Shown one piece after another: positions 2,139 to 35,100 of a stretch of 64,000 nt of DNA. Made by a program: the position numbers and the translations under genes. How positions within the stretch are numbered: position 1 is the stretch's first letter; every line of letters starts with the position of its first letter. Under the pieces are notes generated by a model. It did no database searches and was not told where the DNA came from. It saw only the letters and a list, made by a program, of their open reading frames with translations. The stretch comes from Carcharhinus amblyrhynchos (taxonomy: Eukaryota), in the NCBI GenBank assembly GCA_965287045.1, contig OZ336880.1, forward strand, positions 40,858,001 through 40,922,000, in the 5' to 3' direction.

Positions 2139-5100
2139 AATAGTACTTTTCTTCTGAATATCTTTGAATAATGATGCTTTTTTTTGATTTATGGTGAATT
2201 TATGAATTTGCTAAATACAAACTTAAAAATTTCTTGCTACTAAAAATAATCATATCTTATTTGTAGTTGTTGAAAAGGTGGTTCATTTTTAGAGTTGATT
2301 TATAATAATTGTACCCTGCAATGGTTTATCAGCAGTGGAACTTTAATTTGTGATTTTTAAAATATTAGCTGAAAAGTAACTATTACAAAAATACTCATGG
2401 TTTTAGACTAGAAGTATAAAAAAACCTAGATGAGGTCAAAGGTGTTGAAAAATATTGATAACAAGCTATTCTAGATCAAACAAGATGACTATTAATGGCT
2501 TGGTTGGCATCTTTAAACATGAGATTTTCTGCTCCCCATGGCGCATTTTGCAGTGGCAGAGATGGCCCAGCATTGCCAAACAGCAGGATCTTCCAGTCCC
2601 ACTGCTGTCAACAAGGTTTCCTATTGTCTGCATGCTCCGCCGCTGGGAAACCCACAGTGGAAATCACTGGAAGATCCAGCAGGCGGGAATAGCCAAGAAA
2701 TGCATTGAAGGACTGTCTTGTTGAATTTAGCACTACAGTTTGAAGTAAACCCAATCAATATCCATATGTACATGTACTTATTTGTTTTGCAATTCCTTTG
2801 TAGTATGTCATCACACTGGTTAGCATTGTTGCCTCACAGTGCCAGATACCTGGGTTCAATTCCTGGGTGAGGCGACTATATATGCAGAATCTGTACATTC
2901 TCCCCGTGTCTACATGGGTTTCCTCCAGGTGTTCTGGTTTCCTCTCACGGTCTGAAAAGACACGCTGGTTAGGTAACCAAGCTAAATCCTCCCTTAGCGT
3001 ACCCAAACAGACGCCAGAGTGTGGCAACTAGGGGATTTTCACAATAACATGTAAGCCCACTTGTGACACTAATAAGTAAACTTAAACTTATCATTGGCAA
3101 TGACCTTCCCTGATTTCTTGGGTGACCTACTTTCAAAGACACTATCCAAACTACTTTGAAAATGCTGTAGCGCTGCAGGAAAATTCTGTCATTCTGAATT
3201 CTTTGGCCCAATACTTTGCTTCTGCATGAGGCTGTGACTGACATGTCAATTGAGTTTCACAATTCTCTCATGCAGAGGCCAAGGTGCTAATCTCATCAGA
3301 GGTTTGCATTCAAACACACATCCTTCAGTGATAGGTGCTGCTCTTAATGTGCTTTCTGGAAATATTCACTTCAAAGTGCATGCTTGTGTTTCATTGAAAG
3401 ACTAGTTAAGATATTGAAATCTTATTAAGTGAGCATTTATCCTATTTGATATACAATAGATGAATACTTTTGTTAACATTTAAGATAATTAAAGATGTGA
3501 ACTAAGATGTGATTCATTGTTAATTCTTTGAAGACTATCATTTTCCACAGCAGAAAACATTTCATACAGCATGTTAGGTTGAAAAATTTAACTAAGGAAA
3601 AGAGTATCAGAAGAATGTTTTAAAAATTTTATATTGTAATAGGCAGAAATAAATGTCCAGTCTGACAGTAATGTTGAGTACATTCTGTTTGATATAAATA
3701 GCATTTGACTGAATAACATTCAATCCCTAAAGCAGAGATTAAGTTATGAGGCCACATTACCTGAACAGTTTGAAGTTGTTTCTATCTGGATTCTGCTCTG
3801 TTTCCTGCTGGCACCACTGTAGATTTAGACTTACATGTGGTTTAGAAGGTATTTTAATTTAAAGGCTTGAAATTCATGTTAATGATACTAGAGGAAAATC
3901 ACTAAACATGCTGATTTGACATATGTCTACCCAGCATGTTAAGAGGATCATTAATCCCATTTATTTTAGCTGGTCTAATGCCACAATTAAAATGCCCAGA
4001 GCAATGTCAGATCAACATGTTAAAGATTTATTTGCTAATATTACCAACAGCAATTTCTTGTCCAATATTTTATTATTGGGAAACTAGTAGCTGATAACTT
4101 TAGGCATTGTGGAATTGCCATTTTGTGAAGCTATTTGATACTATGGAGATCAAGCTGAGGGATTGTGATAGGAAGAACTGAAAGTGATACCAATTGTCAT
4201 GTGAAGGATGCGGATGGATATGCTTATGATTATGGACCACAGTTCTTGAACGAATTTATGCACCAGGACAGAGCTACTCCAGCGACATGACAGGATAGTT
4301 TCTGTTGGCTATAATTTAGAGAGATTCTTGAAGCTTTGGTAAGTATGATTTCAATTATGGTTTACCTCTGCTTTTGCTCATTGTTATAATTTCCATTTAG
4401 ATCTCATGTATGCACTACTTTGCAGCTAAGGTAGAGAAGAGCTTGCTTTGTCCCAGCTGTTTTTGGTTATATAGGGCACAAAGTCCATGCGACTCTTTAC
4501 CTAGATTTCTTATCCTGTCAATCAGAAAATATTTGGCAGTCCTAGCTTTCCTTTTTTCTGTCTTTATTGTTTCAGAAATCCCATGTTTAACCACTGTTGT
4601 GCTCTACTCTATAGCAGTTTATTGGAGTACTGGTGTACTATGTCGCCACATTGGCCAGATGTTCAACATTTGGTTTATTCAGTGTTTTACTTGTCATTCT
4701 GTTGTTGCTAACGTTAAGGCCAATGTCTGTTGGGGGTGTGGGGGGTGGGGGGGGGTGCAGAAGAGCTTGAGAGATGGTTCAGAGCTGTAAGTGCAATGTG
4801 TAGGATTAAGAATTCATTTCATGGAGTTGCAAAACTTACTGATTGTGTTACCACATTTGCTTTTGGAGGGAGTAAGCTCTGTGCCCCAATGTATTTTAAT
4901 GTGCCCTAAGAATTATTATCAAATATGTCAGTTGAATCTTTTAAGCAGTTTCCATAATAGTGGAAGTAGAGCAGTCAACATGTATATTCAGTAAACTTAA
5001 AGACTATGACCTTGTCATAATACTGATAATTTCAGTGTTATTGTAAACTTACAATGAGATTGAGTCTTCAATGAGTTTGCAGATAATCACATTGTGTCTA

Positions 5101-8100
5101 TATATGAGTCACATCTTTGAGTATCATTTTAATATTTACTCTTAACTTGTTTTTTTAATGGTAGAATTAAGCTTTTCTATTGTAATCAATGTTTAATATT
5201 TGTGCAAAACATGTAAATTGTTTAGTAGTGAAGGAGGAGCTTTGGTGGTTTGATTTGTACAAACGTCAAAATAAAAAAAATTGTACCTTTCACAACATAA
5301 ACATTAATCAACATTTTAGTCAACATATTTATCAGTTATGTTCTTGCAATGCAACAGTCTAATTGTGAAAGCATGTGTTGTTTACTATCATTTATCTGCC
5401 CCATTTACATGATTTATGATGTGATGAATGAAAAAAGTTAATCTTCCATCTTGGTGAGAAGTTCTTTAATACAGACATCATTCATTCCTTGTACAGGTTT
5501 CTGTTGCTGTATATCATAATTGTTTCACGTGCTCTATGGGTGGTTAGTTGATGATAGTTTGGTTTTGGTATAGTAATAATATGATTGATATGTATGGCAT
5601 ATTTCCTTTCACTTAACCTGTCCTGTCCTGAGACAGCTGCTCATGCTATGATGCAGTTCCACAGGCCCCCTAGTACCTTGCCCATCTGAATGTTTAATGA
5701 TGACCTGTGAATTTTGGTAAATTATTTGAGCGTTGGCCAACTTGGCGAATGTTGTTCTGCACTTAACTGATGGCTACACACACATGGCTGAATACCTTGG
5801 TTCCTGGGTTTTGGTAACAGGAGCAGTGGTATAGCTGGTAAACTAGCAGAAGCAATGTTGAGATGCCTCCCCTTCACTGACCCATTGTGGGACAGGCTTT
5901 CCAATGGTGGGCTGCAAGACAGTTGGCAACCTGCTCCATGGAGGCCAGCAACTAAGTTCCATACACAGGGCTCAATTAAAGGCCATTTTACGGATCCATC
6001 ACCATTTACTAGTGGCAGGTGGGCCCCCATTGAATGGAGAGTCTGCCAATTTCCAGGAGCTGGCCCTTCAGCTTTGCCTGAAGGGGCCTTCAGAGCCAGA
6101 AGTACAAAAGGCAGCCCAAACACCCCTAACAATCCTCTGGAGTAATTTTGTTCTGTAATCGGTGTAGCCAATTGCTGTCATCCCTCCCAAAGTTTAATTT
6201 TACTTACCTCTCTGAGGCTCCTTCACTTTCAATCACCTCAACAGCTATGTCCTGCCTCAGCGGTGCTGTCCTCTCCTGGTGACAAGGCCTAAGTTTCAGA
6301 TCTGTTAGCCTTCTGATTGGGCCAGCAACATCAGGAGCCAGAGTCCATAATTGGATGGTGGGCTCTCAGGTGGCTAATTAGGACAAAAGATGTGCTGGTT
6401 AGGTGCATTGGTGTGCTAAATTCTCCCTCAGTGTATCCAAACAGGTGCAGATATGTGGCAACTAGGGGACTTCCGCAGTGAATTCATTGCAGTGTTAATG
6501 TAAGCCTACTTGTGACACTAATAAATAAACTTAAAGGAAATCAGCTGCAGTAAAATCATTGAGCCAGTCCCTCTGACAGCAAGTATGGGCTCAGGATCTG
6601 CCTTTCACCCTAAAAGCAGGACCCTGAAGCCCACAGTAAAAAATTGGCCCCACATTCAGTTTGGATTGCAGGATAATGATCAGGAAAATAAACATTTTTA
6701 GATTTTGTGTTGCCATAGCCTGGAGATGCTGAAGTCAATTTTAGCATTTCATTGCTCCCTAGTTAAGAGAGGTTCAGCATAAATCAGGTTTTGTGTAGCA
6801 CAGGGCTAGACAAATGTTACACTTGTCTCCTGAACCACTGGACCAGATCCTGGCTTAGTAAATTGTTATCACGTAAACCAATATGGGTTTGACAACATTG
6901 AGTTATCAGATGATTGGCAAGGTTTACACATGAAAACTATTATTTTTCATTCTGAAACTTGGCAGACTATGAAATTATCAAACAGATAGTGTTATTGTTA
7001 AGGTAAAAGTAGGAATGCATTTTTCTCTTAGTTTGCTTGTGGTATGACTTACTGCTCAAATGTGATTTATTTGATTGAAACATTTGTATTTCTGTGATGG
7101 AATAAAATTTATATTAGAAATTACTCAAGCCTTTAGAACATTTCTAGCATGCAAAATAATTTTGTATACTGATAATTAATACCAACATGACTACCTTGTA
7201 ATGGAATTTTGTGAAGTTCCCATGGCAAGATGGTTACTGAGCTAGTTTTTACTCATTTTGATTCAGAAATGGAGAATATTGATGTGACGTAAAATCATTT
7301 TTATCTGTAAATAGTTACTGTGGCTCTTCAGAAGATCTATATTTAATATCTACAAATCTCAAAAAATTTTAAGTTAAATGGTTTGATTTTGACTTGAGAA
7401 ATGAAGGCAAGTTTTTTTTATTTTGCTTGTAAGCTGTTCAAAATAGCTTGAGGCAAAATTTCTCTCCTGCTTTGGACTAATTCTATTCACAATTAATGGA
7501 TCCAATTGTATGTTTTAGTTAAAGATAAATCTTTGAGATGAACTATTACAGAATTTTATCCTTTTGAGGCAATTTGAGTTTAGCATGCTAAGTTATGTGA
7601 TTAATTTTTGTGATTATTTTCAGTTTCCAGTATTAAGAAACATCACTCACCATCAACACGCATTCTAAATTTAAGCATCTTATTTCTTATACAGAATTTT
7701 CTAGCTCTGTTACCGTTGCTGCTGAAGATAAGAGGGAAGATTTCTACAGTAGTGACCTCCATGTGTCAGATAAAACATTTGAACTCAAGCCTGAAACAGC
7801 ACCTCTTTCCAGCATTTCAGACATAGAAGCTAAGCCTTTGAAAGCAATACCAGCATTTGTTAAAAGCATTTCCAGTATAGAGGTAGTTGTGGAAGATGTA
7901 GCTAAATTCACTGTGACAATAACTGGATTCCCCAAACCCTCTATTCAGTGGTTTCATAATAATAAAAAAATCACTCCTTCATCAAATTGCAAATTTATTT
8001 ATGATAGGGATGAATATAGTCTAATTATACCTTATGCAAAATTTACAGATGAGGGAGAATATACTTGCTCAGCTGCCAATGTGCTTGGAACAACTTCATG

Positions 8101-11100
8101 TAGTGCATATCTGAAGATCAAACCAAAAGATGGTATGGGAGGGTTTAGGACATCAGCTTCAAAACCTCCAGTTGCAAAACCGACTGATAAAAAAATAAGC
8201 AAAGAGGCATTCTCAAAGGAAATTGTGTCAATGATTCCAACAGAAACCATACATACCCTTAGAGGTCAGCCACCACATTTTTTCAAAGAACTTAAATCTG
8301 TGCAGTGCCCAGAAGGTCTGCCTGCTAAATTTGACTATGTAGTGAAAGGTGAGCCAGTGCCAGAAGTGCTTTGGTATAAGGAGAACGATCAGATTCACCA
8401 GAGCGTGCAATGCAATCTTAGATCCAATCCTGACGGCTCTGGTTCATTAACTATCAATAATGCACAAAAAGAGGACAGTGGTTTATATTCCTGCAAAGCT
8501 TTTAACTCATTTGGTGAAACAACTTGCACTGCAGAGCTAATTGTATCCAGTGGCACTTCTGCTACTGTTGAACATAAGAAACAGGAAGTAGTTCAAAAGC
8601 ACCATACCAAGTCATACACAAAGACTGTTGGTGATCATGCCACAGAGTCACGTTTATTCATGGTAAAGTTACCTGGTGAGGCTCAGGCTGAATTACAAGA
8701 CAGAGATCAACTGGTGTACACAATAGCTTCTGAAGGTAAACATTCGGTTCACAGTGAGCAGACCGGCACATTGCATGATGTGACTGTTTCTGCTGCAGAA
8801 ACAGCAATTGCAGGAAAGAGACAGATAATAATGCATTCACAAACCACACAAGAAAGCCTGGGTTATATAGAGCAACATTATGAACCAATTAAAAGTCCAC
8901 CAATGTTTGAATTATCAAGCACTGAAGTACAATTAGATTCTACCCTTTGTTTGCCCACAATTGAGGAGAAAACTTTAATTCCAAAGGAAGGCAGTTTTAG
9001 TATCAGAGATTCATCTACTATAGATACTAAGACAAAGACAAAAGAAACAAGCATCTTGTCTGTGGAAAAGGATCTAATTCCCAGCTCCAGGACTGTTGTA
9101 GAGAAAGAAATATCAAAAACAGAGCCAGCATACTCTTTGCACAGCTACAAGGTTGAGGGAGATCAAGGACCACCCAAAGAGGCATTGTTTGGATTTGAAA
9201 TTCCTGCATTACAGAAATGTGAAATACAAAAAGAAAGAAAAATGGAGGTTCATACAGCTGTAGCAATGGAACAGAATAAAATAAAACATGAAATGGCAGA
9301 AGACATACAAATGTTAGATGAAGCAAGAGAAGCAAAACCGTTTAAAGAATTGCCGAAACCATTCTTGATGACTGTCACTGAAAGCCAGAAATCATTAGCG
9401 AAGGAATCTCTGTTCAAAGTACCTAAAGCTGACACACAACAAGCTTCAGTTATGAAAGATAAACTTGTGAAAACTGCTTTAACTGCAGAAGAAAAACAAC
9501 AGCTCACGAGTGAACACACCAAAGCAATATTTGGGTTAGACAGTGCAATCTCATTAACATCAAAAAAAGAAGAAAAGACACCTTTGCATTTACAGATTGT
9601 TAAGGGACAAGACACTCTGCCCAAAGAAACAACATTTACTTTTGAAGTACTGGCAGATGAGAAAGCTGACCTCAGAAGGAGCCCAATATTGCTGCATTCG
9701 TTACTATCAGAAGAACAGCATCTTTTACCTCACGAATACACTACTCCGTTATCTGATGTAAAAGATGCCGTCAGAACTAAACCTATGAAAGAGCGTATGC
9801 CTATTTTATCTCCTCATTATATGGAGACTACATGCATTTTTGATAAAGAAAGGATGCGACCTGATGAGAAACCAGCATCTCATGTTGCAGCACACAAACT
9901 TGAGAAAGCATACAGCTATTCTGCTGTTGTGGAAGAGAAAGCAGAATTGTTAGCTGAACAAACTAAAACACTTGAAAAGGAAGTTCCAAGTGTACAGGCT
10001 GAAGTTAAAAGTGAGCATTCAGCAGAAGAATACCTCCCAGCTGTAACTGTACCAATGCACCTATCAAAAGAGAAATGTTTTACTGTTGAAGAGAAAGAAC
10101 AACGTGCAGTAATAAAGAAGTTGGATGACACAGTTAAACAGTTCGGTACTATAACAGAGATTAAGATCGTGGAAGATGGTTCACTTGCCATTTCTGAAGC
10201 CGTAAGTGCAGCAACCTGTGAAGATAAATATGAATTAAAGCTCCCTTCAGTTTCTGTGCAGGTTAAAGATAAGGCAATGCCTATAGAAAGCATCAAGACT
10301 TTAGAGGCTGCAGAAGAGGACTTTGCAGCAAGAATCCAAGAGGGTCAGTCAGTAAGATTTCCATTGCTGCATGAAGAAAAACAGCTCATTGAAGAGGAAC
10401 ATTCTTCAGGAATCAAGAGATCAGAGCAAACAATTCTGAAGGTGGAGAAACAACCACATGAAACACAATTTGCTCAAGTAATACAAGAAAATAATGCATT
10501 CCATAAAGAAACAGCATTCAAGGCTGAAGTTCCTAAAGCAGTCACCTTAGATGTTAGTACACAGATTAAGAAAGCATTGCAGTCAGCTTTAGCAAGTGAA
10601 CATTGTGTCCTTTCTTCTATTTTACTAGGTAGCATAGAACCAGTGAAGATTAAGGAATTAAAAGTTCAAAAAGAACCTAAATATAATTTATACACATACC
10701 AGATTACTAATATCAATCCTCCCATAGACATAACTCTGTCATTTGAGGGAGAATACCCTCAGAAAGCTGACTTAAGAAAGGAATTAATAGCTGCCTTCCA
10801 TGCCATTACTCATGAACAACAGCAGGCTTTGCTAGCTGAGGAATTGAATATCATTCAGCTGCCAACTGATAGGTTAGAAAAATTGTGCATCAGCATAGCT
10901 CCTGCAAAAGAGATGATCTCACCTGAGGCTGTCAACATTGCTGAAAGCACCTCTGAAGTGGCTAGGTATGGAATGCATATGACTGAACAGAAAATGCAGA
11001 CAGCAGAGAAGACAGTTGTTCAAGAAATGATAGTAACCACTGAATCAGAGGATTTTATTCAGAAGTTTAAATCTGTAGAGACAATTAAAAAAGGGGCAGT

Positions 11101-14100
11101 CGTTAGTCACATAAGAGATGTTGGTGGTGCGATAATTACTAAAGATGCCCTTTCAGCACCTGTCCCAGTAGAGCAACCAACAGAAATTCTTAAAAAAGAG
11201 AAGAAAATTGAGGAGCTTATAGTTACTAGCATTTCTAAACCGAAAAAGCCAGGTGAAACACTAATAAAAATCACCAAAGACATTCCAGTAATTATTAAAG
11301 GGCTTACAGATATCATTGTAGATGAAGATAGTGACGTAAAATTAAGCACAGTCATTACAAAAGTTAACAAGGTAAATTGGTATATCAATGGGAAGAAAAT
11401 CATTTCAAAACATGAGTTCAAATGTTTACAAGAACTTGACACTTACTCACTTATAATCAACAATGTACAGAAAGCGGACCATCAAGGAGAATATGTCTGT
11501 GAGGCACTGAATGAAGCTGGAAAAGCAACTACTTCTGCAAAACTCACAGTTATTATAAGAGGTTGGATTATGGGGATAAAATCTTTGTTAATACGAACTT
11601 CAAAAGCTAATATATTGAACTAACTATGTAGTTAACTTTTGATATTAGTTTCTCAAAACTCAACTGAGTTTATGCCAATAAATTAACATGACTAAATATT
11701 TCCTTCCCTCCTTCCTTCCATTCCTGTCTTCCTTTTTTACCTTCCTTATTTTAAAAGTAAAAGCATTATCTAGTTATCAATCTCTATACCGTGCAGTCAA
11801 AGCCTGATCAGACCGCATCAGTTGATTTCACAGATATTTTGCATCAAAAATTTCAAAACTTAACATCATTAATTTAGCAAACCTAATCTGGTTTTGTATT
11901 AATTTAAATGAAAATTGCATTCTGGCTTGATGCAATCTTCAGATGCTTTCACTGTCGGTAATAAGTAACTTTTAAAGCTTTAAGTTATGTTAAAACTTTA
12001 CTGTGACTATATTATTATTTTTTGGTCTCTTATACTTTAACATTAACTTTTGATTAACATCAGCCATGGTGCTTTAAGTTTCTACTAACAGAATTAATAT
12101 TGCTTTCATCCCCATATCCATATTTGAGGAGTTGCTAGATTTTTTGTCATTATCATCACTTTGTCATAACGAAAAGACATTTCTTCCTAAAACTTAATAT
12201 CACCGTTTCTGTCATTTTTTTTTCTCTAGGAAAACATTTCATAGACGTACCAATTACTTGCATGTTTCTATGGACACCACACATGTCAATAAATGTTGAA
12301 TTTCATTCATTGAAGTCTTTCATTTGTTGAGCACAACCACTGGTCAGCTAACATTTTTAACAATCATTTCTTCTCCACAGTCACTCCTTGGATTGTTAGT
12401 TACTGTCACCCTCCCTCCTCCATCTATGAATTTCAGGGGGTCACATACGAAAAGAATTACAGTTAACTATTGCAGTATTTTCACATATTTTCCTTTAATT
12501 TAAATCATAGTGCCTCCGTCTTTCAAGAGGAAGATTGAACCACTGGAGGTGATAGTTGGACAAGCTTCTCAGTTTGAATGTGAAGTTGATCCTATTCCTG
12601 ATGTAAGGTTCCAGTGGTTTCGAGCAAGAGCTGAACTTCGCGATAGTGAGAAGTACAGGATTGTGAATGAGAAATACATCTCCGTCTTGAAACTTCTGAA
12701 GCCTCAGCTAATTGACTGTGGTGAATACACCTGCAGAGCATCCAACCAGTGTGGTAGTGTTAGCAGCACAGCCAAACTGATGGTGACTGGTAAGTCATCC
12801 ATGTTCAAATTGTCTTTCATTTTAACAATTTGTTTTCAATCAGACTGTCTTAAAAGATTTGGATGGTTTCATAGGTACCTTTACTTCACATATGTCTTAA
12901 TATCACTTTCAACAATAGCAATACATGTTTTGATATTTTTATATCATTTAATTATGAAAATAGTTACATTTTGAAAAGATATTTAAATAGTCAATGACTT
13001 TGCCTATCATCTGTTCATTCCTTTTATAAAATCACTATTGTGGCTTCTTTGTAATGATAAAGCTGTCTGTTTTGCTAATAGAGTGGGTTGAATTTTTCCA
13101 TTTGGATCATGAGTCCAACCCTGGCCCCAGAAGTGGCAGTGGTGGAGTGTTGCTTGTGATCTTCCCAGAGGCAACCAATTGGCCTCTGGAAGCGCTGTCC
13201 AATTAAAGACAGCAGGAGGACCAATGAAGTGAGGGCATGTAACAATGTCTGGCTCGCAGCCCACTAGAAGGGTGGACTGAGATGAGCATGATGTGGATGT
13301 GCCGGCGTTGGACTGGGGTAAACACAGTAAAAAGTCTAACAACACCAGGTTTTAGTCCAACCGATTTATTTGATAGTAAACGCACAAGCTTTCGAGGTTT
13401 CCCTCTTTGTCAGGTGAATGGAGAGTTCTGGCCTCAGACAGAGCATATAAAGCACAGACAGTTTAGAGATTACTGATTAGAATGCGAATCTTTACACCTA
13501 ACCTGCTGTTCAAGTCTTAAAGTGGCCGACAATGTGTGTGGAAGGAGCACTGATCACAGGTTAAAGAGATGTGTATTGTCTCCAGACAGCACAGTGAGTG
13601 AGGTTTTGCAAACCCAGGCAAGTCACGGGGGTTACAGATAGTGTGACATGAACCCACACTATCTGTAACCCCCGTGACTTGCCTGGGTTTGCAAAACCTC
13701 ACTCACTGTGCTGTCTGGAGACAATACACATCTCTTTAACCTGTGATCAGTGCTCCTTCCACTCACATTGTCGGCCACTTTAGGACTTGAACAGCAGGTT
13801 AGGTGTAAAGATTCGCATTCTAATCAGTAATCTCTAAACTGTCTGTGCTTTATATGCTCTGTCTGAGGCCAGAACTCTCCATTCACCTGACGAAGAGGGA
13901 AACCTCGAAAGCTTGTGCGTTTACTATCAAATAAATTGGTTGGACTAAAACCTGGTGTTGTCAGACTTTTTACTGAGATGAGCAGGCAGCCATCAGAGAT
14001 CTCCCTAAGATTGAGATGCTCTCCAGAGGATTTTGAAATGCTCAAAATCCCATTTGGTTGCACCTATCAAGCCATCAGTGTAAAGGATAAGCCCACAACA

Positions 14101-17100
14101 GGTTAGCTTGTGGCCAGGAGGCTTTATTCAGGTAAATGATGGACAATAGCCTCATTGGGTGGTCCCCAACAATGGCATCTCTCCCCCAGTTGGTTCAGTA
14201 ATGTGTTTAAAGCATTACAAAATCATTGCAATCAATTAATATATCTGTATAGCTGCATGATTAGTATACGACCGTTGAAATTAAACTACGACACATAGTC
14301 CTCCACATATAAAACTTCATCTTTAGAAAAATACTTAATTTTGAATTCATATCTTCCTTCAGTAACACAATACAGCACCTTGGCATCTGAATCAGTTTTG
14401 TTACCTAGATAATTGTTTTGCAAATTAGTTTTTTTTCTGACTGTGAGCTTTCTGAATGCCACAACAAATGCAGCAGAGGTTATCAAAAATGCTGCAACAA
14501 ATGCAGCAAAGAACATCAATGTCATCTCTTTACTTGTGTCTTTCTGATTTTCTTTAAAGTAAATCGGGACAATATAACTGTCCTAAATGAGTACTAACTT
14601 AAAGCTTAATTCCTTCAAAAATGAAAATCTTAACCAAGATGTTTCTTTTGTAGAACTTACACCACCCAGCTTTATAACTAGACTGGAATCACTTACAACA
14701 TTTGTGGGTAAAACTGCAAGACTTCAGTGTACAGTGGCTGGATCACCTGTGATCCACACCACTTGGCAGAAGAATGGTGTTGATATTACTGATGAAGAGA
14801 ACTGCAAAATATCAGTCAAAGACAACAAACGTGTTTTAGAAATTACCAATGTAAAGGTTCTGAATAAAGGAAGCTATTCTTGCAAAGCGACCAATGACTG
14901 TGGCACTGAAATTTGCAGTGCTGATCTGATAGTACTTGATAAACCGCATTTCACTAAGACTCTTGAACCTACTCAGACTATAATTAACTGCAGTACACAT
15001 CTTGAATGTCACGTAGATGAAGACACAGCAGTTAAAGTGTCATGGAAAAAAGATGGATTAGAACTTCATTCTGGCAAAGATTATAAAATTACATTTGAAG
15101 ACAAGGTAGCAGTTTTAGAAATTCTGAAAACCAAGCTGAAGGATGCAGGAAATTATGTCTGTACTGCTTCAAATGAAGCTGGAAGTGATTCTTGCTCAGC
15201 GGCATTAGCAGTGAAAGGTAAGGAGTTCTGGAGATTACTAACCTCTGGGAAGCAAAACTTGTGGCTGTTTGGATAAAACTAATTACAGATTTTAAGATCT
15301 TTTATTAGAGGCAACATTTCTTGTTGCAGGTTAGACAACTAACTCTAATTGCTCTTTGTTCAAATCATATTTTTCTTCATTTTAATTTGCAAATTTTATA
15401 TAGGTGCAATCGCATTTATTAAATAACACGTTCATTAAAACATCTTGATTAAAGGCTGTTTCCTAATGCAGCTGATTCTTATTTATGATTGCCTCATTTT
15501 CATAGTTTAATGAAGCTGAGGATAATATCACTGTTTTTGTCATTACCCTTTTTCTATAAATTCAATAAATGTTACCCTTAAAGATAATTTTTCATTTTGT
15601 AAGATATAGTATTGAAGCAATTGTGAATTTTGTAGAACAAAGTAACTATGCTTTATATGCATCATTTTGTACATCATAGGTAAATTATGCCTTTCTTCTC
15701 GTAAGCAAAATATGCACAGTAGATAAATATTTCTGTCACAGTGAAAGCTATCTTTTTCTTAATTTTAATTAAACAGGCATTTGTCTTGAATATTCTCAGT
15801 TCCTCCAAATCAGATGACTATGTATTTGTCTGAAGACAATCTTAATCTTGTACAGTATAAATATTTTCTCCACGATATAATGAGAAATATTGAGTCAAGA
15901 GAACAAGTTAATAATGCAAATTAATGGAGTCTATCTGAATTAGGAAGTTGTTCTTTTAACACAGTCACGTTAATTACAAGTACTGTGCAGTTAGGATTGT
16001 GACAAATTCGTTGCATTTGGATTCAGGTTCACATAGCACATTTGTGTGAGAAATAAGACTGATGAGCTGCAGATGCAGATAAGTGCATGGAAACATGATG
16101 TTGTGGTGATAACAGAGATCTGGCACAAAGAGGGACAGGATTGGGTATTAAATATTCCTTGTTACAAGGTGTATGAGAAAGATAGGAAATGAAGGAAAGG
16201 AGGAGAGGCATTATTGATTAAGGAGAATTTTGCAGTGCTTGAGAGAAGGGATGTCACAGAGGGGTCAAAGGCAGAATCTATTTAGCTGGAACTAAAGAAC
16301 CAGAAAAGATGCAATTACATTGCCCATTGTAGTCTATTGACAGTCAACAAGTGAAAAAGCCCCTAGGAAAGAAAAGAGTAGTTACAATGGGGGACTTTAA
16401 TTGCCTGAATATAGACTGAAAGGCAGAGCGGGGAAAGATTCCCAACAGTTCATTCAGTTTAATTTTCTGTAGTAGTTTGTTTTCAGTTCAAAGAGAAAGG
16501 AGGCATTGCTGGATGTAATGCTCGGGAGTTAGTTGAGCCAGCTGGATCAAGTGTTAGTAGGGGAGCATTTAGGAGGTTATTGTATCGTGAAGCTCAATCT
16601 AGTGTGAGAATGATTAAATTGTACAAAAGGAACTTCAATGTGGTCAGGATAGATCTGGCCCAGATAAATTGTAAGCAACTGTCAGACAATGTTACAACAA
16701 TGTAACTGAACAATTTAAATTTACTTTAAATAAGTAGCTGGTCAAGTATGCTCAAGGTGTATGTCCATGAAGATGAACACATGGGCAAACAAATGCAGAG
16801 CTCCAGAATGGTGAAAGGAATAGAGATTATGATGAAATAGGAAAAAAACGTGCGTATGGCAGATGTCAGATAGATAATACAAGTGAGAGCCAGACCAAAT
16901 ATAGAAGGGCCAGTAGGGGGTTGAAAAAACAAATCAGAGGAGCAAACAGAGTATGAGGAGAGACTGCCAGCTAACATAAAATGAATCCAAAAGTCCTCTC
17001 AAGGTATATAAATAGTAAAAGGATGGTAAGAGGAGGAATGGGACTGATTATGGTCCAAAAAGGGGATTTGCACATGGGGCTAGGGGACATAGGTGAGGTA

Positions 17101-20100
17101 TTGAATTAATGCTTTGCATCTGGCCATATTGAGGAAGAAGACCCAGGTCATGATGAAAGAAGAGGGAGTTCAGACAGTTGAGAGTTTACAGTTGATAAGT
17201 AGGAGGTATTATGTAGGCTTTGTTTACTTAAAGTTGATAAGGCATTAGGACCAGATGAAATGCATCCAAGAATACAGAGGGAAGTCAGAGTGGAAATTGC
17301 AGAGATATGGCTATAATTTTCCAATCTTCCTTAGACTCCAGGTCAGCACATAGAAATCATAGAAACCCTACAGTACAAAAAGAGGCCATTCGACCCATCG
17401 AGTCTGCACCGACCACAATCCCACCCAGGCTCTATCCCCATGTCCCTACATATTTACCTGCTAATCCCTCTAAACTACACATCTCAGGACACGTAAGTGC
17501 AATTTTTAGCATGGCCAATCAACCTAACGTGCATATCTTTGGATTGTGGGAGGAAACTGGAGTACCCGGAGGAAACCCATGCAGACACGAGGAGATTGTG
17601 CAAACTCCACACAGACAGTGACCCAAGCCGGGAATCAAACCCAGGTCCCTGGAGCTATGAAGCAGCAGTGCTGACCACTGTGCTATTGTGCTGCCACCAA
17701 TGACTGGAGAATTGCAAATGTTAAAACGTAGTCCGAAAAAGGGTACAAAGGCAATGTAGTGGGACAGCTTTTAATAATTCTATACAAAATTAATAGTCAT
17801 TTGGACAAATGTGTGTTAATGAAGAAGAGCCAGTACAGACTTGTGAAGGGAAAATCATGTTTAGCTAACTTGTTTGAGATTTTTGATGAGGTTACAGAGG
17901 GTTGATGAGGGTAATGCTATTGATTTTGTGTACATGAATTTCCAAAAGACATTTGATAATGTTCCACTCAGTACACTTGTGAGCAAAGTTGGAACTCATT
18001 GGAAAAAGGACACAGTCGTATATGGATAAAAAGTTGGCTGAGCGACAGGAAGCAAATAAGAGTGGTGAACGGTTGTTCTTCAGATTGGAGGAAGGTTTGT
18101 AGTAGAGTTTCCCAATGATGCGTGTAAGGAGCCCTGTTCTTCCATTTATATTTTAATAACCCGGATCTTGGTCTACTGGACACGATTTCAGAACTTACGG
18201 ATTCAAAGCTTGGCGAAATTGTGAACTGTAATGACAATAGTGTAGAACTTCAGAAAAACACAGACAGACTGATGGAATGGGCAGACAAATGGCGTTGAGA
18301 GTTAATGCAGGACCCGAAAATCCGTCTCTTTGTGTTTCTTTTATAATTTGCTTACTTCTGTTCCTTAATTTACCTTTTCAACAAAATAAATAAGGGAGTC
18401 AGATGCTAAGCAATTATTAAGTCAAGCATTCTGTTGATCACACACATTTTAAAATCAAGACCTATCTGAGCCTAAGTGTATTCAGTTTCACACTTCAGTT
18501 GCTGCTTTACATCTGTCACCAACTTAACTGTTTTTTATATATATAGATATGATTTTGCTTTTATCTTTGTTGAAAAATGGTTAAAAGCTTAAACACTAAT
18601 ATCACTAGTGATGATTAATATGGTGTATGTTATATCTTTAAATTTGTTTTAGTGATATTAGTTCTCTTCTTATAAATGCCTCTTCCTTGGCATTTCTTAA
18701 AATATTTCTTCAAACCTCCCTTCAGAACCACCTTCATTCGTTAAGAAGTTAGAACCATCATTGCTATTGAAACAAGGTGATTCAGTGCACTTGCAGTGCC
18801 AAGTGAAAGGGTCACCCGAAATCAGCCTTGCCTGGTACAAGAACAATAAGATTCTCAGTTCCTCCGAAAAGTACAAGATATCATTTGCTGACACTACAAC
18901 TGTTCTTGAGATTCATGATTTAAATGTAGAAGATAGCGGGGATTATGTGTGTGAAGCACAAAATGAAGCTGGAACTGATAGCTGCAGCTCTGCCATCACA
19001 ATCAAAGGTCTGTATGATGTTGTCATTGATTTCACATTAGGCAACATCATTGTTGCTTTCTCTCATCTCTTTGGAAAAAAATACTCGTTTAAAATAGAAT
19101 GTTAGCATGGGATTTTTATGTTTTCCTTTGTAGAGCCTCCCTCTTTTATCAAAGCGTTTGAACCTACTGAAGTGGTAAAAGGTTGCGGTTGCACTCTTGA
19201 ATGTGAGCTGGCTGGCACAGCTCCGTTTGACATTCTATGGCATAAAGACAGGAAGCCAATTCGAGCTAGCAAGAAGTACAAGATGACCTCCAAAGATGCT
19301 CATGCTTCTCTCCATATTAGCTTCTTTGAATCCTCAGACGTCGCTAATTATCAATGCACTGTTTCCAACGAAGTTGGAAAATGTCTTTGTGGCGCATCAG
19401 TAAAGTTAAAAGGTTAGTAATATTCTCAGAAAGTGAAGCAAATGCTTTCATCATCTACCAGTATAAGTAGATATTGAGAAATTAACAAAGTTCATTTAAT
19501 GGATGGACCCAACCAATTCTATATGTTCATTTTAAATTAGAACCACCATCATTTGTGAAGAAGATTGAAAATACTTCTGCACTTTTGGGAAGCTCAGCTG
19601 TGTTTCAGTGCAGCCTAAAAGGCTCGCATCCTATTACAATAACTTGGCTGAAAGATAAAGACATTGTCACAGAAAGTGATAATATCAAAATTACGTATGA
19701 GAATAATATTGCTACTCTTCATATTGCTGCTGTTGAAATGAACAACAGTGGGAAATACACCTGTATTGCAGAAAATGAAGCAGGAAGTCAAAAGTGTCTG
19801 GCAACATTTGTTGCGAAAGGTCAGTTTGAGAATGGATTGGCACTTTTTATGCGAGACTCATGTTTTATGAAATTATGATGATTTTGTTAATGGCTACTGT
19901 TTCATTTTGCCATAGAGCCCGCAAATATCCTAGAGAAAGCTGAACCAATTAGTGTTACTGCGGGGGACCCAGCAACTTTGGAATTCACAATAGCTGGTAC
20001 ACCAGAATTAAAAATTAAATGGTTCAGGAATGGAAAGGAGCTGATATCCAGTAGAAAATACAAGACAAGTTTTTCAGACAAGGTCGCCAGCCTAAAGATC

Positions 20101-23100
20101 TTTTCTGCAGAAAATGAGGATAGTGGTGAATACGCTATTGAGGTCAAAAATGATGTGGGCAGTTGCAGTTGCAATACCTTTATTACTGTACTGGGTCAGT
20201 ATCTAATAACCCAATTTTATATTTTCTTTGTTCATTGTAATGTTAAACATTGTTTGAATTTTGTTTTGGTAATCATACTGGTTTGTATCTTGTCTTGGAC
20301 AGATCGCATGGTTGCACCCTCCTTCACGAAAAAATTACGAAAAATGACTAGCATCCTGGGTGCTTCTTTTAACATGGAATGCAAATTTTCTGGTTCTATC
20401 CCAGTCAGTGTATCTTGGTATAAAGATGACAGAGAGATATCAACCAGTGATAAGTACACAATTGCATGTCAAGACAACGTTGCTACTTTGACAATCAATC
20501 ATTCAGAGATTGCAGATGGGGGAACTTACTCATGCAAAGTTACTAATGCTGCAGGAAGTGATGAATGCAGTGGAGTCCTAAGTATAAAAGGTTTGAGCAA
20601 ATAATTAAATTCTGCTTCTGCACTGACGTTTTCTTTTGGGGTTTCTTTCTTGGCTACCTTCTTCCTCTCTTGAAGCTGTTGATGTCTTACCAAGGCATAA
20701 TTCCATGCCATTTTTTTTGAACTTGTCCAACTGCCCATTACTTATGTGTGGAACTCAGCAAAGAATGTTGCTGGAATATTTGACTGTAGAAATTATCTAT
20801 TCAGAGTCATAAGTTGTCTTTGCTCAATGTCTGTATGCACACAATTCTAGCCAGAGATTGGGAATGTGAACTTGTGTAATTTTTCCCTCCTGAACAATGA
20901 TGCTCAGACCAATGATAATGAAATAACCACTGCCCTGGCTGTGGTCAACTAACACAGATTAGGAATTGAACCTTGTGTGTCACTAGTCACTGTTATTTGG
21001 CTATTTTCCAGATAAACTTGCTGAACAACCAGGGGACCCCCTTGAATGACTAAGAGTTAATTGCCAAAATGCTGTGAGTGAGCTACTCTCAGTTAACTGA
21101 GGTACCAGCAGTCTGTTAAGGCACAACACAAAAACTTGGAGCTGGAGTAGGCGATTTGGCCACTTGAGCTTGCTCCATCATTTGATAAGGTCTGATGGTA
21201 ACCTCAATTTCGCTTTTCTGTCTGCCCCCCACCCCCCCCATAATCCTTGGCCCCTTTGTGTATCAAAAGTCTATTTAGTTTAGCTTTGAATATATTCGAT
21301 GACCAGCTCCCTGCTCTCTAGGGAACAGAATTCGACAGGCTAACAAAATTCTGAGAGAAAATAAATTCTCCTTATCTCAGTCTTAAATTGGAGATCCCTT
21401 ATTTTAAACTGTGCCCTCTAGTTCGGGCGGCATAGTGGTTAGCACTGCTGCCTCACAGCGCCATGGACCCATGTTCGATTCCTGGCTTGGGTCACTGTCT
21501 GTGTGGAGTTTGCATGTTCCCTCTGTGTCTACGTGGGTTTCCTCCAGGTGCTCCAGTCTCCTCCCACATTCTGAAAGACATGCTAGTTAGGTGCATTGAT
21601 CCAAACAGGCACCAGAATGTGGCATCTAGAGGAATTTAACAGTAACTTCATTACAGTGTTAATGGAAACCTTTCTTGTGATTAATAAATAAACTTAACTT
21701 AGTTCCATACTGCCCCAGAAGAAGAAACATCCTCCCCACATCCACCTTGTCAGAATCATATATGTTTTAATAAGATCGCCTTTCATTTTTCCAAAATCCA
21801 ACAGCTGTAGCCCCAACCTGCTCAATCTTTCTTCAAGGTAATCCCTTCATCCAAGGAATCAGTTGTCTGAACCCTCCCTGAATTGCTTCCAATGCAATTT
21901 TTTCCTTTCTTAAGTTAAGGAGACCAAAACTTCACAGAGTACTCCAGATGCAGTCTAACCAAAGCCTTGTCTAACTGCAGCTTCTTTTATACTGAATTCC
22001 CCTTGCATTCCATTTTCCTTCCTAATCACTAGGTGTGCCCAATTACTAACTTTTTGTGATTCATATGATCCATTGACTTCTTGAGTCTCTCGCCATTCAA
22101 ATCATGGACTAAATTTTTCTTCTTCATGCCAAAGAGGAAAAATTCACATTTCCCAGCATTATTCTCCAAATTTTTGTCCACCCACTATCTAAATTCCCCT
22201 GTAGACAATTTATGTCCTCTTGGCAGCTTAATTTCCTACCTTTTATTGTGCCAGCATACAGTCCATCCCTTATCCAAGTCATTTTCATGAAAGCTCTGCC
22301 TTCTTAGCCTTGTCCCTCACCTGAGGAGTGGTGACTCTCAGATTGAATTACCACCAGTCAGCTCTTCCCCTGAAAGGGATGAGCAGCTGTGGACATCTGG
22401 GATTGTGGTAACTTGATCTTACCCAAAATAGATTGTAAATCGTTGAGGACCCAGCACTGGTCTCTGTGACACTTCACTAGTTACAATTTGATAATCCAAA
22501 AAAAATCTATTAATCCCTACTCTCTGTTTCCTGTTCACCAGCCAATTTTTATCCATGCTGATATGTTAATCTCTGCACCATATGCCCTTATCGAATGCCT
22601 TTTGGAAATCCAAGTACAACACATCAACTTGAAAATTACTTCATCAAAAAACTTTAGTTTATTTGGCAATCACAACTTCCCTTTCACAAAACCATGTTGA
22701 CTCTGCCTGATTGTATTATGATTTTCTAAATTTTGTGCTCCTACTTCCTTAATAATAAATTCTCAATTTTTTCCTATGACAGACATTAAAGATGTTTTTC
22801 TCTCAGGGGATCATTGGCTTGTTAAATTTCCCATAGTTTCTTGAATTTTGTCTCACATGGGCAAGGTTCTTCTCCACGTATCACTTTACTCAACACTACA
22901 ATGTTTTAGTACGTCATTGCACCCCAACATTAATCCCTGCAAATCATAAGGGAAGGAGGAAATGGGGGGAAAGCTTCCTTGCTTACTGCTGTCTATTCAT
23001 TGATTATGCATTATTCATATGTTGTTTCTTTGAATGTCTTTTAGAGCCTCCCAGCTTTATCATAAAACCTGCTTCTGAGCATGTTCTACCTGGTTCAACT

Positions 23101-26100: not shown

Positions 26101-29100
26101 AGGATAGTGGTGAATATACTTGTGAGGTTGCAAATGATGTTGGTAGCAGCAGTTGCAAAGCTTCTATAACAGTATTGGGTTAGTATTTTTGCTTTTCCAT
26201 TTTGTTGCATTTACCATAAGTTTAAAAAGAACAGCTGATATTTTGAAAGAGATTATAGCTTTTCCTTTCCTACTATGTGTTGGACAGATCGCATAGTTCC
26301 ACCATCGTTTAAAAGAAACTTAAAAAATATGGATGGCATCAAAACATCCTTTATTAAGATGGAATGCACGATCTCTGGCTCTCTTCCAATGGATGTGCTC
26401 TGGTATAAGAACAATCAAGAAATATCAGCTAATGAAAAATATAAATTTTCTTATCACGATAACTTGGCACAGTTGGAGATTCATCATCTAGAGTTGACAG
26501 ATAGTGGAACTTACATTTGCAGAGCAACAAATGACGCTGGAACTGATGAAAGTAGCGGTGCCTTAACTGTGAAAGGTTGGAAATCTTGTCTTCAATCTCT
26601 TAAATGCTTACATGAATTAATTAGTTCACCTAGGATTTAGTTATCACAAACATCAGTTATTATGCAATTATTATTTGCTCTATTAAAAAACATGTTGAGT
26701 GTACCATAGGTTATACTTACATAGTTTTGTGATATTTTGCCATATCTTTTCAAAGTTTCTATTTCCCATGTATTTTCTTGCCATTATGACTGCAATTTTC
26801 CTTTGGTAATTTTAGAGCCTCCATATTTTACTGTGAAACCATTGTCCCAGAATGTTTTGCCTGGTTCCAAAGTGCAGTTTAGGAGCGTTATGAGTGGGAC
26901 ACCTCCAATGGCAATAAAATGGCTTAAAGACAATAAGGAGTTAACGTCTAGCAACTCACGTTACATTTCAAAAGAAGGCTCATCAAGTTTGCTACAACTG
27001 CATTCAGCTGAAGTTTCTGATACTGGTGACTACGTTTGTCAAGTCAGCAATGAAGTTGGCACAGAATCGTGCACTGCTCGTCTTTTTGTCAAAGGTGTGA
27101 ATTATCTTCATGTTTCTGCACGTCATTTTACAAAGTTTATTGTCTTTCTTTAAAACATTATGGGGGGAATCATCCGGCCTCCCAGTGTGTGTTTCTTGGT
27201 GGTGGGGTGTGCAGTTCGCTGGTGGCGCAATTCACTGGTGATGCAATTCTCTGGTCCTGCTGCGGACAATGGGATTTCCCATTGATGTCACCCCATGTCG
27301 CCGCGGGAGGGGGTGCACTGCCAGCTGGACTAGAAAATCCCACGAGCATGCAAAGCTGGGAATGTCCCCCTATTTATAATCTTTATTTGAAAACTCTTTT
27401 TCTCTTTAGTTTTATTTGTGTACCTGTTGTAAGCCTATCTTTATAAGTTCAACCTGAATGTTCCTTCAATACTGTTGCATTCGATTTATTTCTCTGTGCA
27501 GTGAAAACTGTGATCTTACATTGTTTCCAGAGGTTTTGTCTTTTATGCCATGAATTGAGATTAGATCACAATGATTTGTGTTTAGAATTTAGCTGTTTAA
27601 GTATATATGAGAAACATTGTGGCCAAATTAAGGCACATCAGCCCATCAAGCCTGCTCTGCTATTGAATAAGATAATGGCTGATCTGATTATGACCTGAAC
27701 TCCAATTTCCTGCCTGGACCCCCTTTAAATCATAATTCTGTTTAATCTTGCCTTGAATATAATCAGTGACCCAATCTCAACTGATGTCTGTGGGAGAGAA
27801 TTCCTGATGGCACAGTGGTTAGCACTGCTGCCTCACAGTACCAGTGGCCTGGGGTTCGATTCTTGGCTTTGGGTCATTGTCTGTGAGGAGATGACACTTT
27901 CTCCTTGTGTCTGCATGGGTTTCCTCCGTGTACTCTGATTTTTCTCCCACAGTCTGAAATTGATAGGTTTAGAATCCTAAAATTTTATTCTGAACCCAAT
28001 GATGGGTGTTCCTGCACCAGGAGAAGAGTGTGGTGATTCAAGATGGCCTCCAGCACCATCTGAAAGCCAGATGGTTAGGTTCATTGGCCATGCTAAATTC
28101 TCACTGAATGTACCCAAACAGACACCAGAGTGTGATGATTCGGTGATTTTCATTGTAATTTAGTTGCATTGCTAACATAAGCCTACTTGTGACACTAATA
28201 AATGAAAAAGAATTAAAACGCCTGAGAGAAAAATTTTTCCTCATTTCAAGCTTAAATGGAGACCCTTTATTTTTAAATTGTCATTTTTTTAGATTCCTCC
28301 ATGAGGTGGCACCTTTACTGGCATCTATCAAATGTCTTTTAGGAATCTAAGTACATTACATCTATTGGTATCTCTTTAGCCATTGTATTGTTACATTCTG
28401 TTGAGACTTATGAAATATCTCCTTAAAAGCCTGCTGCTGCTTTTCTTTCGTCTTACTTTTTAACCTTTTCACAACTCCACCTAAGGCAACTCTGTCTTCA
28501 CACCCTTTTCATTACTTAAGTTTAAGATGGTCTTCGTTGTAACTTCATAGTAACTTCATTGCAGTGTTAATGTAAGCCTACTTGTGACACTAATAAATAC
28601 ATTTTAAACTTTAATAAATAAACTTTAAACTTCTAAATTTTAGAACTCTAGTTTCAAACTCACATTTCTAACCCTGAATTGGATATTAAATTATTTTATG
28701 TTATGATCAGCTTCACTGACAGAATGAGGTCATTCATTAATTCCATCTTGTTACACATTACCAGATCTAAAATAACCAGTTCTTTGGTTCCTTCCAGAGC
28801 ACATTGTTCTAAAAGAAACTTTCTAGAACCTATGCACGCACCCTGCAGATCACCTTTGCCAATTTGATTAATCTAATCCACATAAAGGTTGAAATCTCTC
28901 ATGATTATCACAGTGCCTTTCTCATAAGCCCCCTCTATTTCTTGATTTAGAGGCTATAATTCATAATTCTACAATGTATTGGCTGTGAAAGGGCTTAAAA
29001 ACAAATGCAACAGTGACTTATTTCCTTTGCTATTTCTCATCTCCATCCAAACTGATTCTACATCATGATCCTCCCAAACCAAGATCACTTCTCACCACTG

Positions 29101-32100: not shown

Positions 32101-35100
32101 GGTACAGGTCCATTTGATGTTGTTTGGTATAAGGACAATAAGCAAATCCGACCTAGTATAAAATTCAAGATGTTCATTGGAAAATCTTTATTTAGTCTTT
32201 CTATTCAAAAATTTGATAACTCGGATGTTGGTGAATACCAGTGTGAAGTGAAAAATGAAGTGGGAAGTTGTTCTTGCGTTACTGGAGTCAAATTGAAAGG
32301 TCAGTTATCAAGTACTGATCATTTTCTTTTTAGGCATTTTCAATACTTCTATTTTGCAATTCATTCTTTTTTTCAGCTTTAGCATAAATGAATGTCAAGT
32401 GTCTGATTTTATAACTAATTCATAAAACTCTTAACTTTATATCAGAACCCCCTTCCTTTGTGAAAAAGATTGAAAACATCACAACATTATCTGGAAGTGT
32501 CGCCACTTTTAGCAGCCAAATAGAAGGCTCAGCTCTCATATTTGTTACATGGATGAAGGACAAGGATGAAATCAGAGAAGATGATTATATTAAAATATCT
32601 TTTGAGAATGGTATTGCTACACTGCAAATTGCTTCTGTTGGAGCAAATCACAGTGGAAAGTATACATGTCAAGCCATGAATGATGCAGGAACAGATAAGT
32701 GTTTTGCCACTTTGTTAGTAACAGGTTAGTATGAGTGACACAACAATTCTGAATTTCAGTAAAGTGTCACGTATGGAAACAACTTCTTACTTCACCAATT
32801 GAGGAAGTATGATTTTTCTTGCAGAATCTGCACAAATCATAGAGAAGCCACAGCCATTAAATGTCACTTCAGGAACTACAGCAATTTTAGAATGCATTGT
32901 TGCTGGTACTCCAGAACTAAAAGTAAGATGGTTCAAGAATAAAGCTGAATTGATATCCAGTAGGAAATGTAAAATGACATTTGTGAACAAGGTGGCAATC
33001 CTAAGGGTTCTGTCTGTTACTAAAGAAGACAGCGGGGAATATGATTTTGAAGTCCAGAATGAGTTTGGAAGCAGCAGCTGCACAACTTCATTGACAGTAC
33101 TAGGTTGGTGTTTCTTTTGTTCGAGCATGTCAAAAAAGAAACATAGAACAAAGAACTCAGTACGATTTTAGAATACTTTGCATGAGAAAGTTATATTTTA
33201 AATGTACTGAAAACATTTTGTCCTTCTAAATATGTGCAGTTCGTTTTAGACAACATCTTAGTCACATCTTCAAGTTAATGTAATAATTGGCTTCATGGTT
33301 TGAGCAACTAATTAAATATTACAGCATCTATTAGTAAAACATGTCAAAATTTTAAGGGTAAATTTGAACTAGTGGGCACATTGTTGTTTCAGTGAGGGGA
33401 CCAGCCATCCGATTCCTCAGGCAGGAGGCTCAGTCTATAACCCATTTTAAGTGCTAGGCTTCATTATTATGACTAGGCTGCCTGCTCTCAACAGGTGTTC
33501 TTCTGCATCTTGCTGGTTGAGGACCAGTATACTATTGGGTATATCTACAGGCTTATCCAACTGGCAAAACGGTAGATCCAGAGAGAAGTTAATAATCATG
33601 GGGTTGGATTACATAGATCCCAGGCTGACAGTGTCCCACATTATTATTGTTGAACTTAGAAGAGCACTTCAGTTCTACTGATACTACAGCCCCATCTGCT
33701 GCACGACTCATAGTAATGGTGCAGAGCATGTACATCACACTTCCTATCCAGTAGCCTGTAAGATGACTTCAAAGTTCCAAGTGTATCATCAGGTCACAGT
33801 CTGCATAAATTAATGGCTGGCCTGCTTGGTTTGGGTGTGCGCATCAGATACCTTGTAACGGCCTACAGAAAAATTGGAAGTGGAACAGGAACAAGGCAGG
33901 AAGTCCACCACCTCTATTTTAACTCCATTACCTCCTGTTTCCACCAGATGGAATGAGTATGCAGCTCCCCTTTGATATTCTAGCAGACAAGCCATTTTTA
34001 TTATTCTTTATTGGACAGATCGAATAATTGCTCCATCCTTCACAAGAAGTTTGAAGAAAATGGATAGCATCTTGGGCACATTGATGCACATGGAGTGTAA
34101 AGTGTCTGGTTCTTTACCAATAAGCGTTTCTTGGTATAAAGACAACAAAGAAATAGTGACTGGCAATAAATATAAAATATCATTTGAAGAAAACACAGCA
34201 CTTTTGGAGATCAAAGAACTTGAAATCACAGATGGTGGAAATTATTCATGCAAAGCAACGAATACTGCTGGGAGCACTGAATGCAGTGGATTCTTAACGG
34301 TGAAAGGTTCGAAAATCTCTTGACTCCAAACAATTTCTATTTCAAGATGCATCAAATGCTGGTTTTCCAGTTATAATATCCATTTTTTCTCTTCTCTTGA
34401 ACATTTAGATAAATTGTGTTTTTCACTTCTTGAAATACTTTAACACATCTTCATTAAAATGCATGGAAGATGTAACTAATATTAAATGTTTTGGCTTTAT
34501 TTTTACTTTATCTGACCTTACCAAACAATATTTTCTTAAATAACTTCTAGAACCACCACATTTTATACAAGAACCAAAGTCCCAAGCAATTGCACTTGGT
34601 TCCACAGTGCAGTTTAAGAGTGTTGTGAAAGGAACTCTTCCATTGGTTGTCAAGTGGTTCAAAGCTAATAGGGAGTTGAAACCTGGTCCAAGATGTTTCA
34701 TTTGGAATGAAGAAACAACACACTTCTTTGAACTAATGTTAGCTAAAACCACTGATGCTGGTGTTTACAGCTGCCATCTCAGCAATGATGCTGGTTCTGT
34801 CACAAAAACTGCCGAAGTTTTTATTGAAGGTTTGCAACTCTTGCCAGTCTTATTGGGAATTAATTTTTAAGTGACATTTTTAAATGTTACATTTCTTTCC
34901 TAGTTATCTTAAAAAAAGAGTAAATTTTATTCTGAGATGATTTTTCTTATATTTAAGAGATGCAAGTTTAGTTTGTAATTCCAGTATTCAGTTTCATTGC
35001 ATTTACTTTTCTCAGAGCCTCCAAGTTTTGTTAAGAAGCCACCTCCTACAACAGCACTGAAACAGGGAGAGCTTGCACATTTTGAGTGCAAAGTAAAGGG

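Follow-up and report, generated by a model that had tools for sequence, protein, structure and literature searches.

Within the I-band part of the titin gene of Carcharhinus amblyrhynchos, the intron after the Ig domain I27 contains a long and nearly perfect palindrome, which raises the questions of what the inserted sequence is, how it was formed, and whether it affects the transcript that carries it. We analyzed it together with the surrounding DNA, a stretch of 64,000 nt (hereafter the window). In our overall explanation, which we hold with considerable confidence, it is a 5′-truncated, non-coding insert of an EN+ Penelope-like element downstream of I27, with RNA signals predicted to be masked, and probably carried as a passenger.

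The dimensions given in the preliminary description were reproduced in full. Two inverted arms of 321 nt are separated by a 9-nt loop, an unpaired 36-nt tail is present on the left-arm side only, and an exact 13-bp direct repeat flanks the palindrome (Table 1), giving an insert of 687 nt. The arm mismatches, previously counted by hand as about 5, are exactly 5 in 321 pairs (13338/13962, 13363/13937, 13408/13892, 13517/13783, and 13537/13763). Because the first four bases of the right repeat overlap the end of the right arm, the target-site duplication is either 13 bp with a 4-bp microhomology or 9 bp without one. RNA folding, which had been proposed as a check, gave −636.9 kcal/mol for the palindrome (z = −81), and none of 20 shuffled sequences was equally stable. 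The window contains seven inverted pairs, of which the palindrome is the longest and tightest. The other six show 71–85% identity, the members of one pair at 40059–40376 lying merely 215 nt apart, and they could also form duplexes in the same titin pre-mRNA. The flanks of the palindrome (13040–13288 and 13976–14200) have a higher GC content, 0.49 and 0.47 against 0.26 and 0.31 elsewhere in the intron, as if the insert had landed in an older repeat; no relatives of these flanks were found within the window.

Table 1. Features of the palindromic insert, the adjoining titin exons and the second copy (positions in the window)
Feature	Position	Strand	Remark
Open frame containing the large titin exon of N2B type (three Ig domains, long unique segment)	7637–11623	+	Exon borders not fixed
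Titin exon, Ig domain I27	12511–12789	+	Donor GT at 12790
Left target-site duplication	13276–13288		13 bp (9 bp if the 4 shared bases are assigned to the element)
36-nt tail	13289–13324	−	3′ end of the element, reaching the parent ORF start codon
Left arm, tailed pseudo-LTR copy	13325–13645	−	Element sense is the minus strand
Degenerate minimal hammerhead of the left arm	13383–13416	−	A at core position 8 (13408, within a CpG)
ORF end GFMSHYL and stop	13632–13655	−	Final seven codons plus stop of the upstream parent ORF; spans the loop
9-nt loop	13646–13654	−	Oriented like the tailed copy
Right arm, tail-less pseudo-LTR copy	13655–13975	+	Element sense is the titin strand
Minimal type I hammerhead, intact	13884–13917	+	Stem I of 3 bp, stem II of 4 bp, palindromic GC replacing stem III
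AATAAA of the pseudo-LTR	13930–13935	+	Inside the duplex
Right target-site duplication	13972–13984		
Next titin exon, Ig domains I28 and I29	14654–15213	+	End approximate
Second copy	38262–38392		Duplications of 11 bp at 38262–38272 and 38382–38392; tail 38273–38309; arms 38310–38340 and 38351–38381

The window covers the I-band part of a titin gene of the shark type and encodes 69 Ig domains, which run from I21 to I89 when the single-Ig exon upstream of the palindrome is numbered I27. In this numbering, I30–I77 form eight 6-Ig repeats that are followed by 12 further domains, the same repeat count as that given for whale shark titin in PMC12241362. A frame of 1,328 codons, in which three I-set domains accompany a long unique segment, precedes the single-Ig exon, whose position after the N2B segment and before I28–I29 and the 6-Ig super-repeats is that of human exon 50. 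A PDB search with the N2B-type exon returned titin as the top matches, yet yielded no domain number. The domain count and the repeat layout thus agree with the earlier assignment of the palindrome to the intron after I27. The donor G lies 535 nt before the left arm, as had been stated approximately, and between the right arm and the end of the intron, at 14653, there are 678 nt.

Several other features of the locus were observed. A 12-Ig block at 35000–52300 was duplicated recently together with its introns (78–97% protein identity between I50–I60 and I62–I72; 80% DNA identity, for example, between 41679–43685 and 49121–51184), and this duplication could explain why there are eight 6-Ig repeats, compared with six in the elephant shark. 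I51 (36254–36529) has Tyr and I63 (45145–45420) has Cys where the paralogues carry the core Trp, and the first conserved Cys is absent from I44; these three are possibly weaker or degenerating Ig domains. Three Ig domains at 636–2126 apparently form the end of a large upstream exon, which, judging by its position, we presume to be probably Novex-3. A short family is dispersed in both orientations (2812–3086, 17350–17686, 21399–21700, 27802–27959, 40059–40516, and 51195–51414), and we take these repeats to be SINE-like. Decayed fragments of LINE-type reverse transcriptase (RT) are located at 17702–18292 and 22428–22801, in the introns after I29 and I34, respectively.

The identification of the insert as Penelope-like, first proposed in the preliminary description, held up on the basis of its tail, its hammerhead motif and its links to both ends of a parent ORF. 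The layout reported for Penelope-like elements is an inverted truncated copy with a tail of 30–40 nt (PMC8557442), and here an inverted pseudo-LTR lies beside a 5′-truncated copy. The same arrangement recurs in a second copy that had previously gone unnoticed (38273–38381, 109 nt), which has 31-nt arms with 2 mismatches in 31 pairs, a 37-nt tail and a 10-nt loop. It is located in the intron after I53, within approximately 860 nt that are absent from the paralogous intron after I65. Its tail-less arm ends at most 1 nt from the same family position as that of the long palindrome. The target-site duplication varies in length between the two copies (9–13 bp and 11 bp).

Neither the hammerhead motif nor the ORF-end remnant at the center of the palindrome had been noticed before. 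The right arm holds an intact minimal hammerhead, and its counterpart in the left arm lacks G8, in the hammerhead position numbering that we assume to apply to this motif. Because our own first descriptor was composed after the motif had been seen, the test relied on is a published RNAmotif descriptor for the minimal hammerhead (Fig. S7 of PMC4209133). Applied to both strands of the 64,000 nt, it gave one match, the right-arm motif, and among shuffled sequences it matched none of 10,000 arms and 2 of 200 windows. The match also has an extra base after A9, a G10.1–C11.1 pair and palindromic positions 15.2–16.2, which are listed as features in PMC4209133. A loose hammerhead pattern alone is at chance level, with 7 matches against 5.8 expected. 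The Rfam hammerhead families, whose models were not built for the minimal form, showed no match to the insert, a right-arm piece or the whole window. In the predicted fold of the isolated hammerhead piece, the pairing probability is 0.99 for stem II and 0.001 for stem I.

The 41-residue frame at the arm end found no match in a first protein search or in Pfam. The minus-strand frame over the hammerhead and the tail matched two proteins among 1.84 billion, and a profile of the minus-strand arm-end frame retrieved eight protein records. Because P0001 and P0002 were part of the profile alignment, their ranks in this search are not independent. Four of the eight outside records reach the tail end, three stop at most one codon from the tail-less end, and one is ambiguous; past the arm end their sequences are unrelated, and in three cases they belong to other repeats also present in the titin window. 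Seven of the eight records show two fixed family ends, comparable to the pair of sites at which RT begins on the anole element.

The connection with a full-length ORF is strong at both ORF ends but indirect, as it runs through short peptides and one rearranged record, P0004, which joins the tail to an ORF piece. This piece retrieves three longer proteins, one from Mustelus asterias, one from Heptranchias perlo (P0010) and one of 881 aa (P0011). In P0010, a tail-like leader precedes a Met that is aligned to residue 1 of P0011; compared with 72,351 ten-mers of the window, this leader finds its best match in the tail of the palindrome. The last seven residues of P0011 find their best match at the center of the palindrome among 4,546 stop-ended 7-mers, and their second best among 85,184 when the stop is not demanded. 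These matches, of an ORF end at the center and of an ORF start at the tail, indicate that one arm plus the tail constitutes the full spacer from a stop codon to the next start codon. RVT_1 is present in P0011 (E = 3.8e-10), as are DKG, YIDD and a CX3CxxC linker, and its GIY-YIG-like core includes two cysteines. A GIY-YIG domain was not called in it by the local Pfam copy at E 0.1; its C-terminal part resembles GIY-YIG clusters, and PF01541 is found in 27–47% of the members of the nearest annotated Atlas clusters. No solved structural relatives of P0011 were found by sequence. P0011, which scores 54% to the Mustelus protein, is a relative and not the parent. The insert itself lacks the RT and GIY-YIG ORF, of which seven codons remain. 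Judged from these sequence comparisons, the insert is an inverted pseudo-LTR of a Penelope-like element; the linker of P0011 points to Neptune or Nematis, and the clade is probably Neptune.

P0010, annotated as an "uncharacterized protein" of Heptranchias perlo, consists mostly of the N-terminal portion of a Penelope-like ORF with added ends and is probably a gene-model artefact. The RVT_1 matches of P0006 and P0007 were rejected as evidence for the parent because those parts match the LINE-like pieces at 17702–18292 and 22428–22801; we take both records to be CR1-type. Non-LTR retrozymes were also rejected, since they need head-to-tail tandem units that each carry a type I hammerhead, and the units of the palindrome are inverted. 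No match was found in the plasmid collection.

For the formation of the palindrome, we lean towards priming from both ends of the target. The parent would be a tandem of two ORFs whose spacer comprises, in order, the last codons and stop of the first ORF, an untranslated region, the hammerhead, the AATAAA, and the tail, which extends to the start codon of the next ORF. A GIY-YIG endonuclease would make a cut staggered by 9–13 nt; one target end would prime reverse transcription at the end of the tail and the other at a fixed site 36–37 nt further in, and the two cDNAs would meet head to head at the center, joined by template switching or by means of a few bases in common, and be filled in. PMC11167929 describes an anole element that cuts and extends both strands and whose two start sites bound the tail; a search of the supplements of that paper for inversion gave no match. 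The target sites differ from those reported for the anole element, which are AT-rich ATT sites. The loops of the two copies have opposite orientations, that of the long palindrome belonging to the tailed strand and that of the second copy to the tail-less strand. Loops of only 9 and 10 nt imply that the stops of the two cDNAs were coupled, and plain two-end priming offers no explanation for this.

A fold-back origin is a possible alternative that we regard as somewhat less than probable; it concerns the formation route and does not compete with the family assignment, and the estimates for both routes are based on two copies. In this route, a single cDNA primed from the tail would fold near its 3′ end, copy itself, and be cut or stopped at the tail boundary. 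The tiny loops would then be explained directly and more simply than by two-end priming, the loop of the long palindrome would have the tailed orientation that is observed, and the tail itself has been ascribed to endonuclease resolution of an intermediate (PMC8557442). However, the second copy has a tail-less loop with four shared bases at its join, so that a tailed cDNA would need a later flip of the loop, and the verifiable shared bases at the join of the long palindrome amount to only one.

The preliminary description considered the insertion young. Relative to the other repeats it is, but at a rate of 7e-10 per site per generation, that of the epaulette shark, the five arm differences correspond to about 1.1e7 generations (3.6e6–2.6e7) if the arms were identical at first, or 6.7e6 generations without the CpG sites. 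The time would be shorter if the arms differed at birth and longer if conversion took place between them.

On whichever strand the element lies, the antisense arm would be transcribed first; in the titin pre-mRNA, the sense arm would then zip into a 321-bp duplex upon emerging. The hammerhead and the AATAAA, which lie in the arm transcribed second, are therefore predicted to be masked. In the predicted fold, the pairing probability of the hammerhead stems in context is 0.0. For transcripts ending at 13917, 13935, and 13960, the motif is predicted to be paired already, as is the AATAAA in the last two. The sense AATAAA noted in the preliminary description is present and is the sole sense copy in its intron, but it is predicted to be paired once transcribed, and 48 sense-strand copies occur over the 51,211 nt from the I27 donor onward. 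Splicing of the intron would remove the duplex without being markedly affected by it, and the insert is probably a passenger.

By analogy, the duplex is likely to be a substrate of ADAR. The earlier suggestion of such a role is plausible, as Penelope is reported as the one additional LINE-class repeat that is heavily edited in lizard, and the elephant shark is among the hyper-edited species (PMC5625713). In Drosophila, inverted Penelope copies are described as sources of siRNA (PMC3681739 and PMC3136932).

A broader combined reading appears unlikely as a whole. It would have Penelope palindromes silence themselves on either strand, with ribozyme and poly(A) signal always masked, and so persist in introns of essential genes from which solo sense copies are purged; at I27 the present insert would in addition tune the length of cardiac titin in a lineage-specific and editing-sensitive manner, and the opposite loop orientations would serve as a genomic fingerprint of two-end priming.

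The I27 donor itself is a regulated site, which counts against the passenger reading. The rat exon 50 donor splices to many distal acceptors (PMC3575840), and the elephant shark ventricle skips i28–i69 from I27 as N2BA (PMC12241362). The preliminary description assigned this donor to the skipping of the middle I-band in cardiac N2B titin. The role in skipping stands for rat and elephant shark, but the N2B isoform was not detected, according to PMC12241362, in the heart of the elephant shark, the one cartilaginous fish studied. A modulation of the donor by the hairpin, which would loop out approximately 650 nt, recruit ADAR or other dsRNA binders, or alter the loading of a repressor and thereby shift the skipping, is in our judgment quite improbable. 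The duplex is very stable and has persisted for perhaps millions of generations, it is from this donor that the cardiac skip departs in rat and elephant shark, and a mouse reporter is described as needing intron 50 unspliced for N2B-type splicing. However, the suggestion of an effect on the donor is weak, and no result links the hairpin to the choice of splice site. The donor and the acceptor are 535 and 678 nt away, and neither pairs with the insert in the whole-intron fold. The UCUU core, given as the RBM20 element in PMC5997748, occurs 4 times in the 687-nt insert, 5 times in the 499 nt before it and 7 times in the 678 nt after it, and is thus not enriched. The second copy lies in an unrelated intron and is missing from its paralogous counterpart, which fits scattered insertions. 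Moreover, the elephant shark also makes the cardiac skip, a comparison that covers the skip alone.

It is very improbable that the hammerhead or the AATAAA acts on the titin pre-mRNA and truncates some transcripts after I27. An intact core and the hexamer are present on the titin strand, with GU-rich bases downstream, but both motifs are predicted to be fully paired during transcription, and the partner hammerhead is on the opposite strand and without G8. Single minimal hammerheads are reported not to cleave in vitro and dimers to cleave little (PMC4209133), and the anole ribozyme requires its protein (PMC11167929).

That the palindrome is a fold-back artefact of assembly or library construction is extremely improbable, even though tandem and inverted Penelope structures trouble short-read assemblies (PMC8557442). 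Four of the five arm differences are transitions and two fall on CpG sites, one in each arm, when 14 of the 321 positions lie in CpG (P ~0.017); this bias looks like decay after insertion and not like an assembly fold-back. In addition, the target duplication is found on both sides, and the arm stops at a family-fixed point shared by the second copy and three of the eight outside records. A palindrome with a flanking repeat, and several microRNA models that score on its center, could suggest a DNA transposon of the miniature inverted-repeat type or a gene for a microRNA, but this too is extremely improbable. The microRNA scores all fall far short of the gathering thresholds (at best 56.9, where 94 is needed) and can be put down to pairing of a generic kind, and the asymmetric tail, the differing duplications (9–13 and 11 bp) and arms (321 and 31 nt), and the ORF links fit a retroelement.

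The palindrome is thus real, well preserved and ordinary in kind, at an interesting address. As a single insertion it matters little, since inverted Penelope repeats, tails, hammerheads, editing and siRNAs have already been described. It is a clean specimen that fixes the start and the end of the spacer of one shark family, and it suggests loop orientation as a genome-wide indicator of the priming route and the intronic strand bias of solo versus palindromic copies as an indicator of self-masking. If the I27 donor really were affected, a transposon would have altered the stiffness of the heart. The open-licence literature yielded no account of this insertion, nor of Penelope palindromes in sharks; the bioRxiv supplements of 10.64898/2026.07.22.740005, outside this scope, may list shark families. 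Penelope-like elements are reported to have expanded in whale shark introns (10.1101/443036).

The insert can be compared with several known systems. It shares a long intramolecular duplex with the siRNA-producing copies of Drosophila (PMC3681739 and PMC3136932) and the edited Penelope of lizard (PMC5625713), but the shark duplex is intronic in a muscle gene and is known here from its sequence. It matches the descriptor and the recurring extra features of the minimal type I hammerheads of metazoan Penelope (PMC4209133). In Fig. S3 of that paper, the GCUU stem III recurs in the turtle row, where a CAAAUAAAUC like that of the left arm follows downstream; the figure has no shark row, and the insert differs by its short 4-bp stem II and by its burial in a long duplex.

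The insert resembles Poseidon PAc of Anolis carolinensis (PMC11167929) in its two fixed 3′ ends a tail length apart and in a hammerhead near the ORF start. In PAc, however, the start of the ORF falls inside the hammerhead, and reverse transcription is initiated 111–118 nt into the ORF, whereas in the shark insert approximately 95 nt separate the hammerhead from the start codon that follows it and at which the tail ends. Poseidon also lacks the linker zinc-finger motif, and the targets of the insert are not ATT-centered, unlike those of PAc. The Neptune clade (PMC8557442) has a C-terminal GIY-YIG, a CX2-5CxxC linker before the endonuclease, and CCHH-type cysteines, and differs in that the insert keeps the spacer alone with seven ORF codons; the linker motif is common to Nematis. 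With Neptune the insert shares the inverted truncated pseudo-LTR, the one-sided tail of 30–40 nt and a hammerhead in the pseudo-LTR, and the linked protein P0011 has DKG, the RT motifs, CX3CxxC and the two cysteines.
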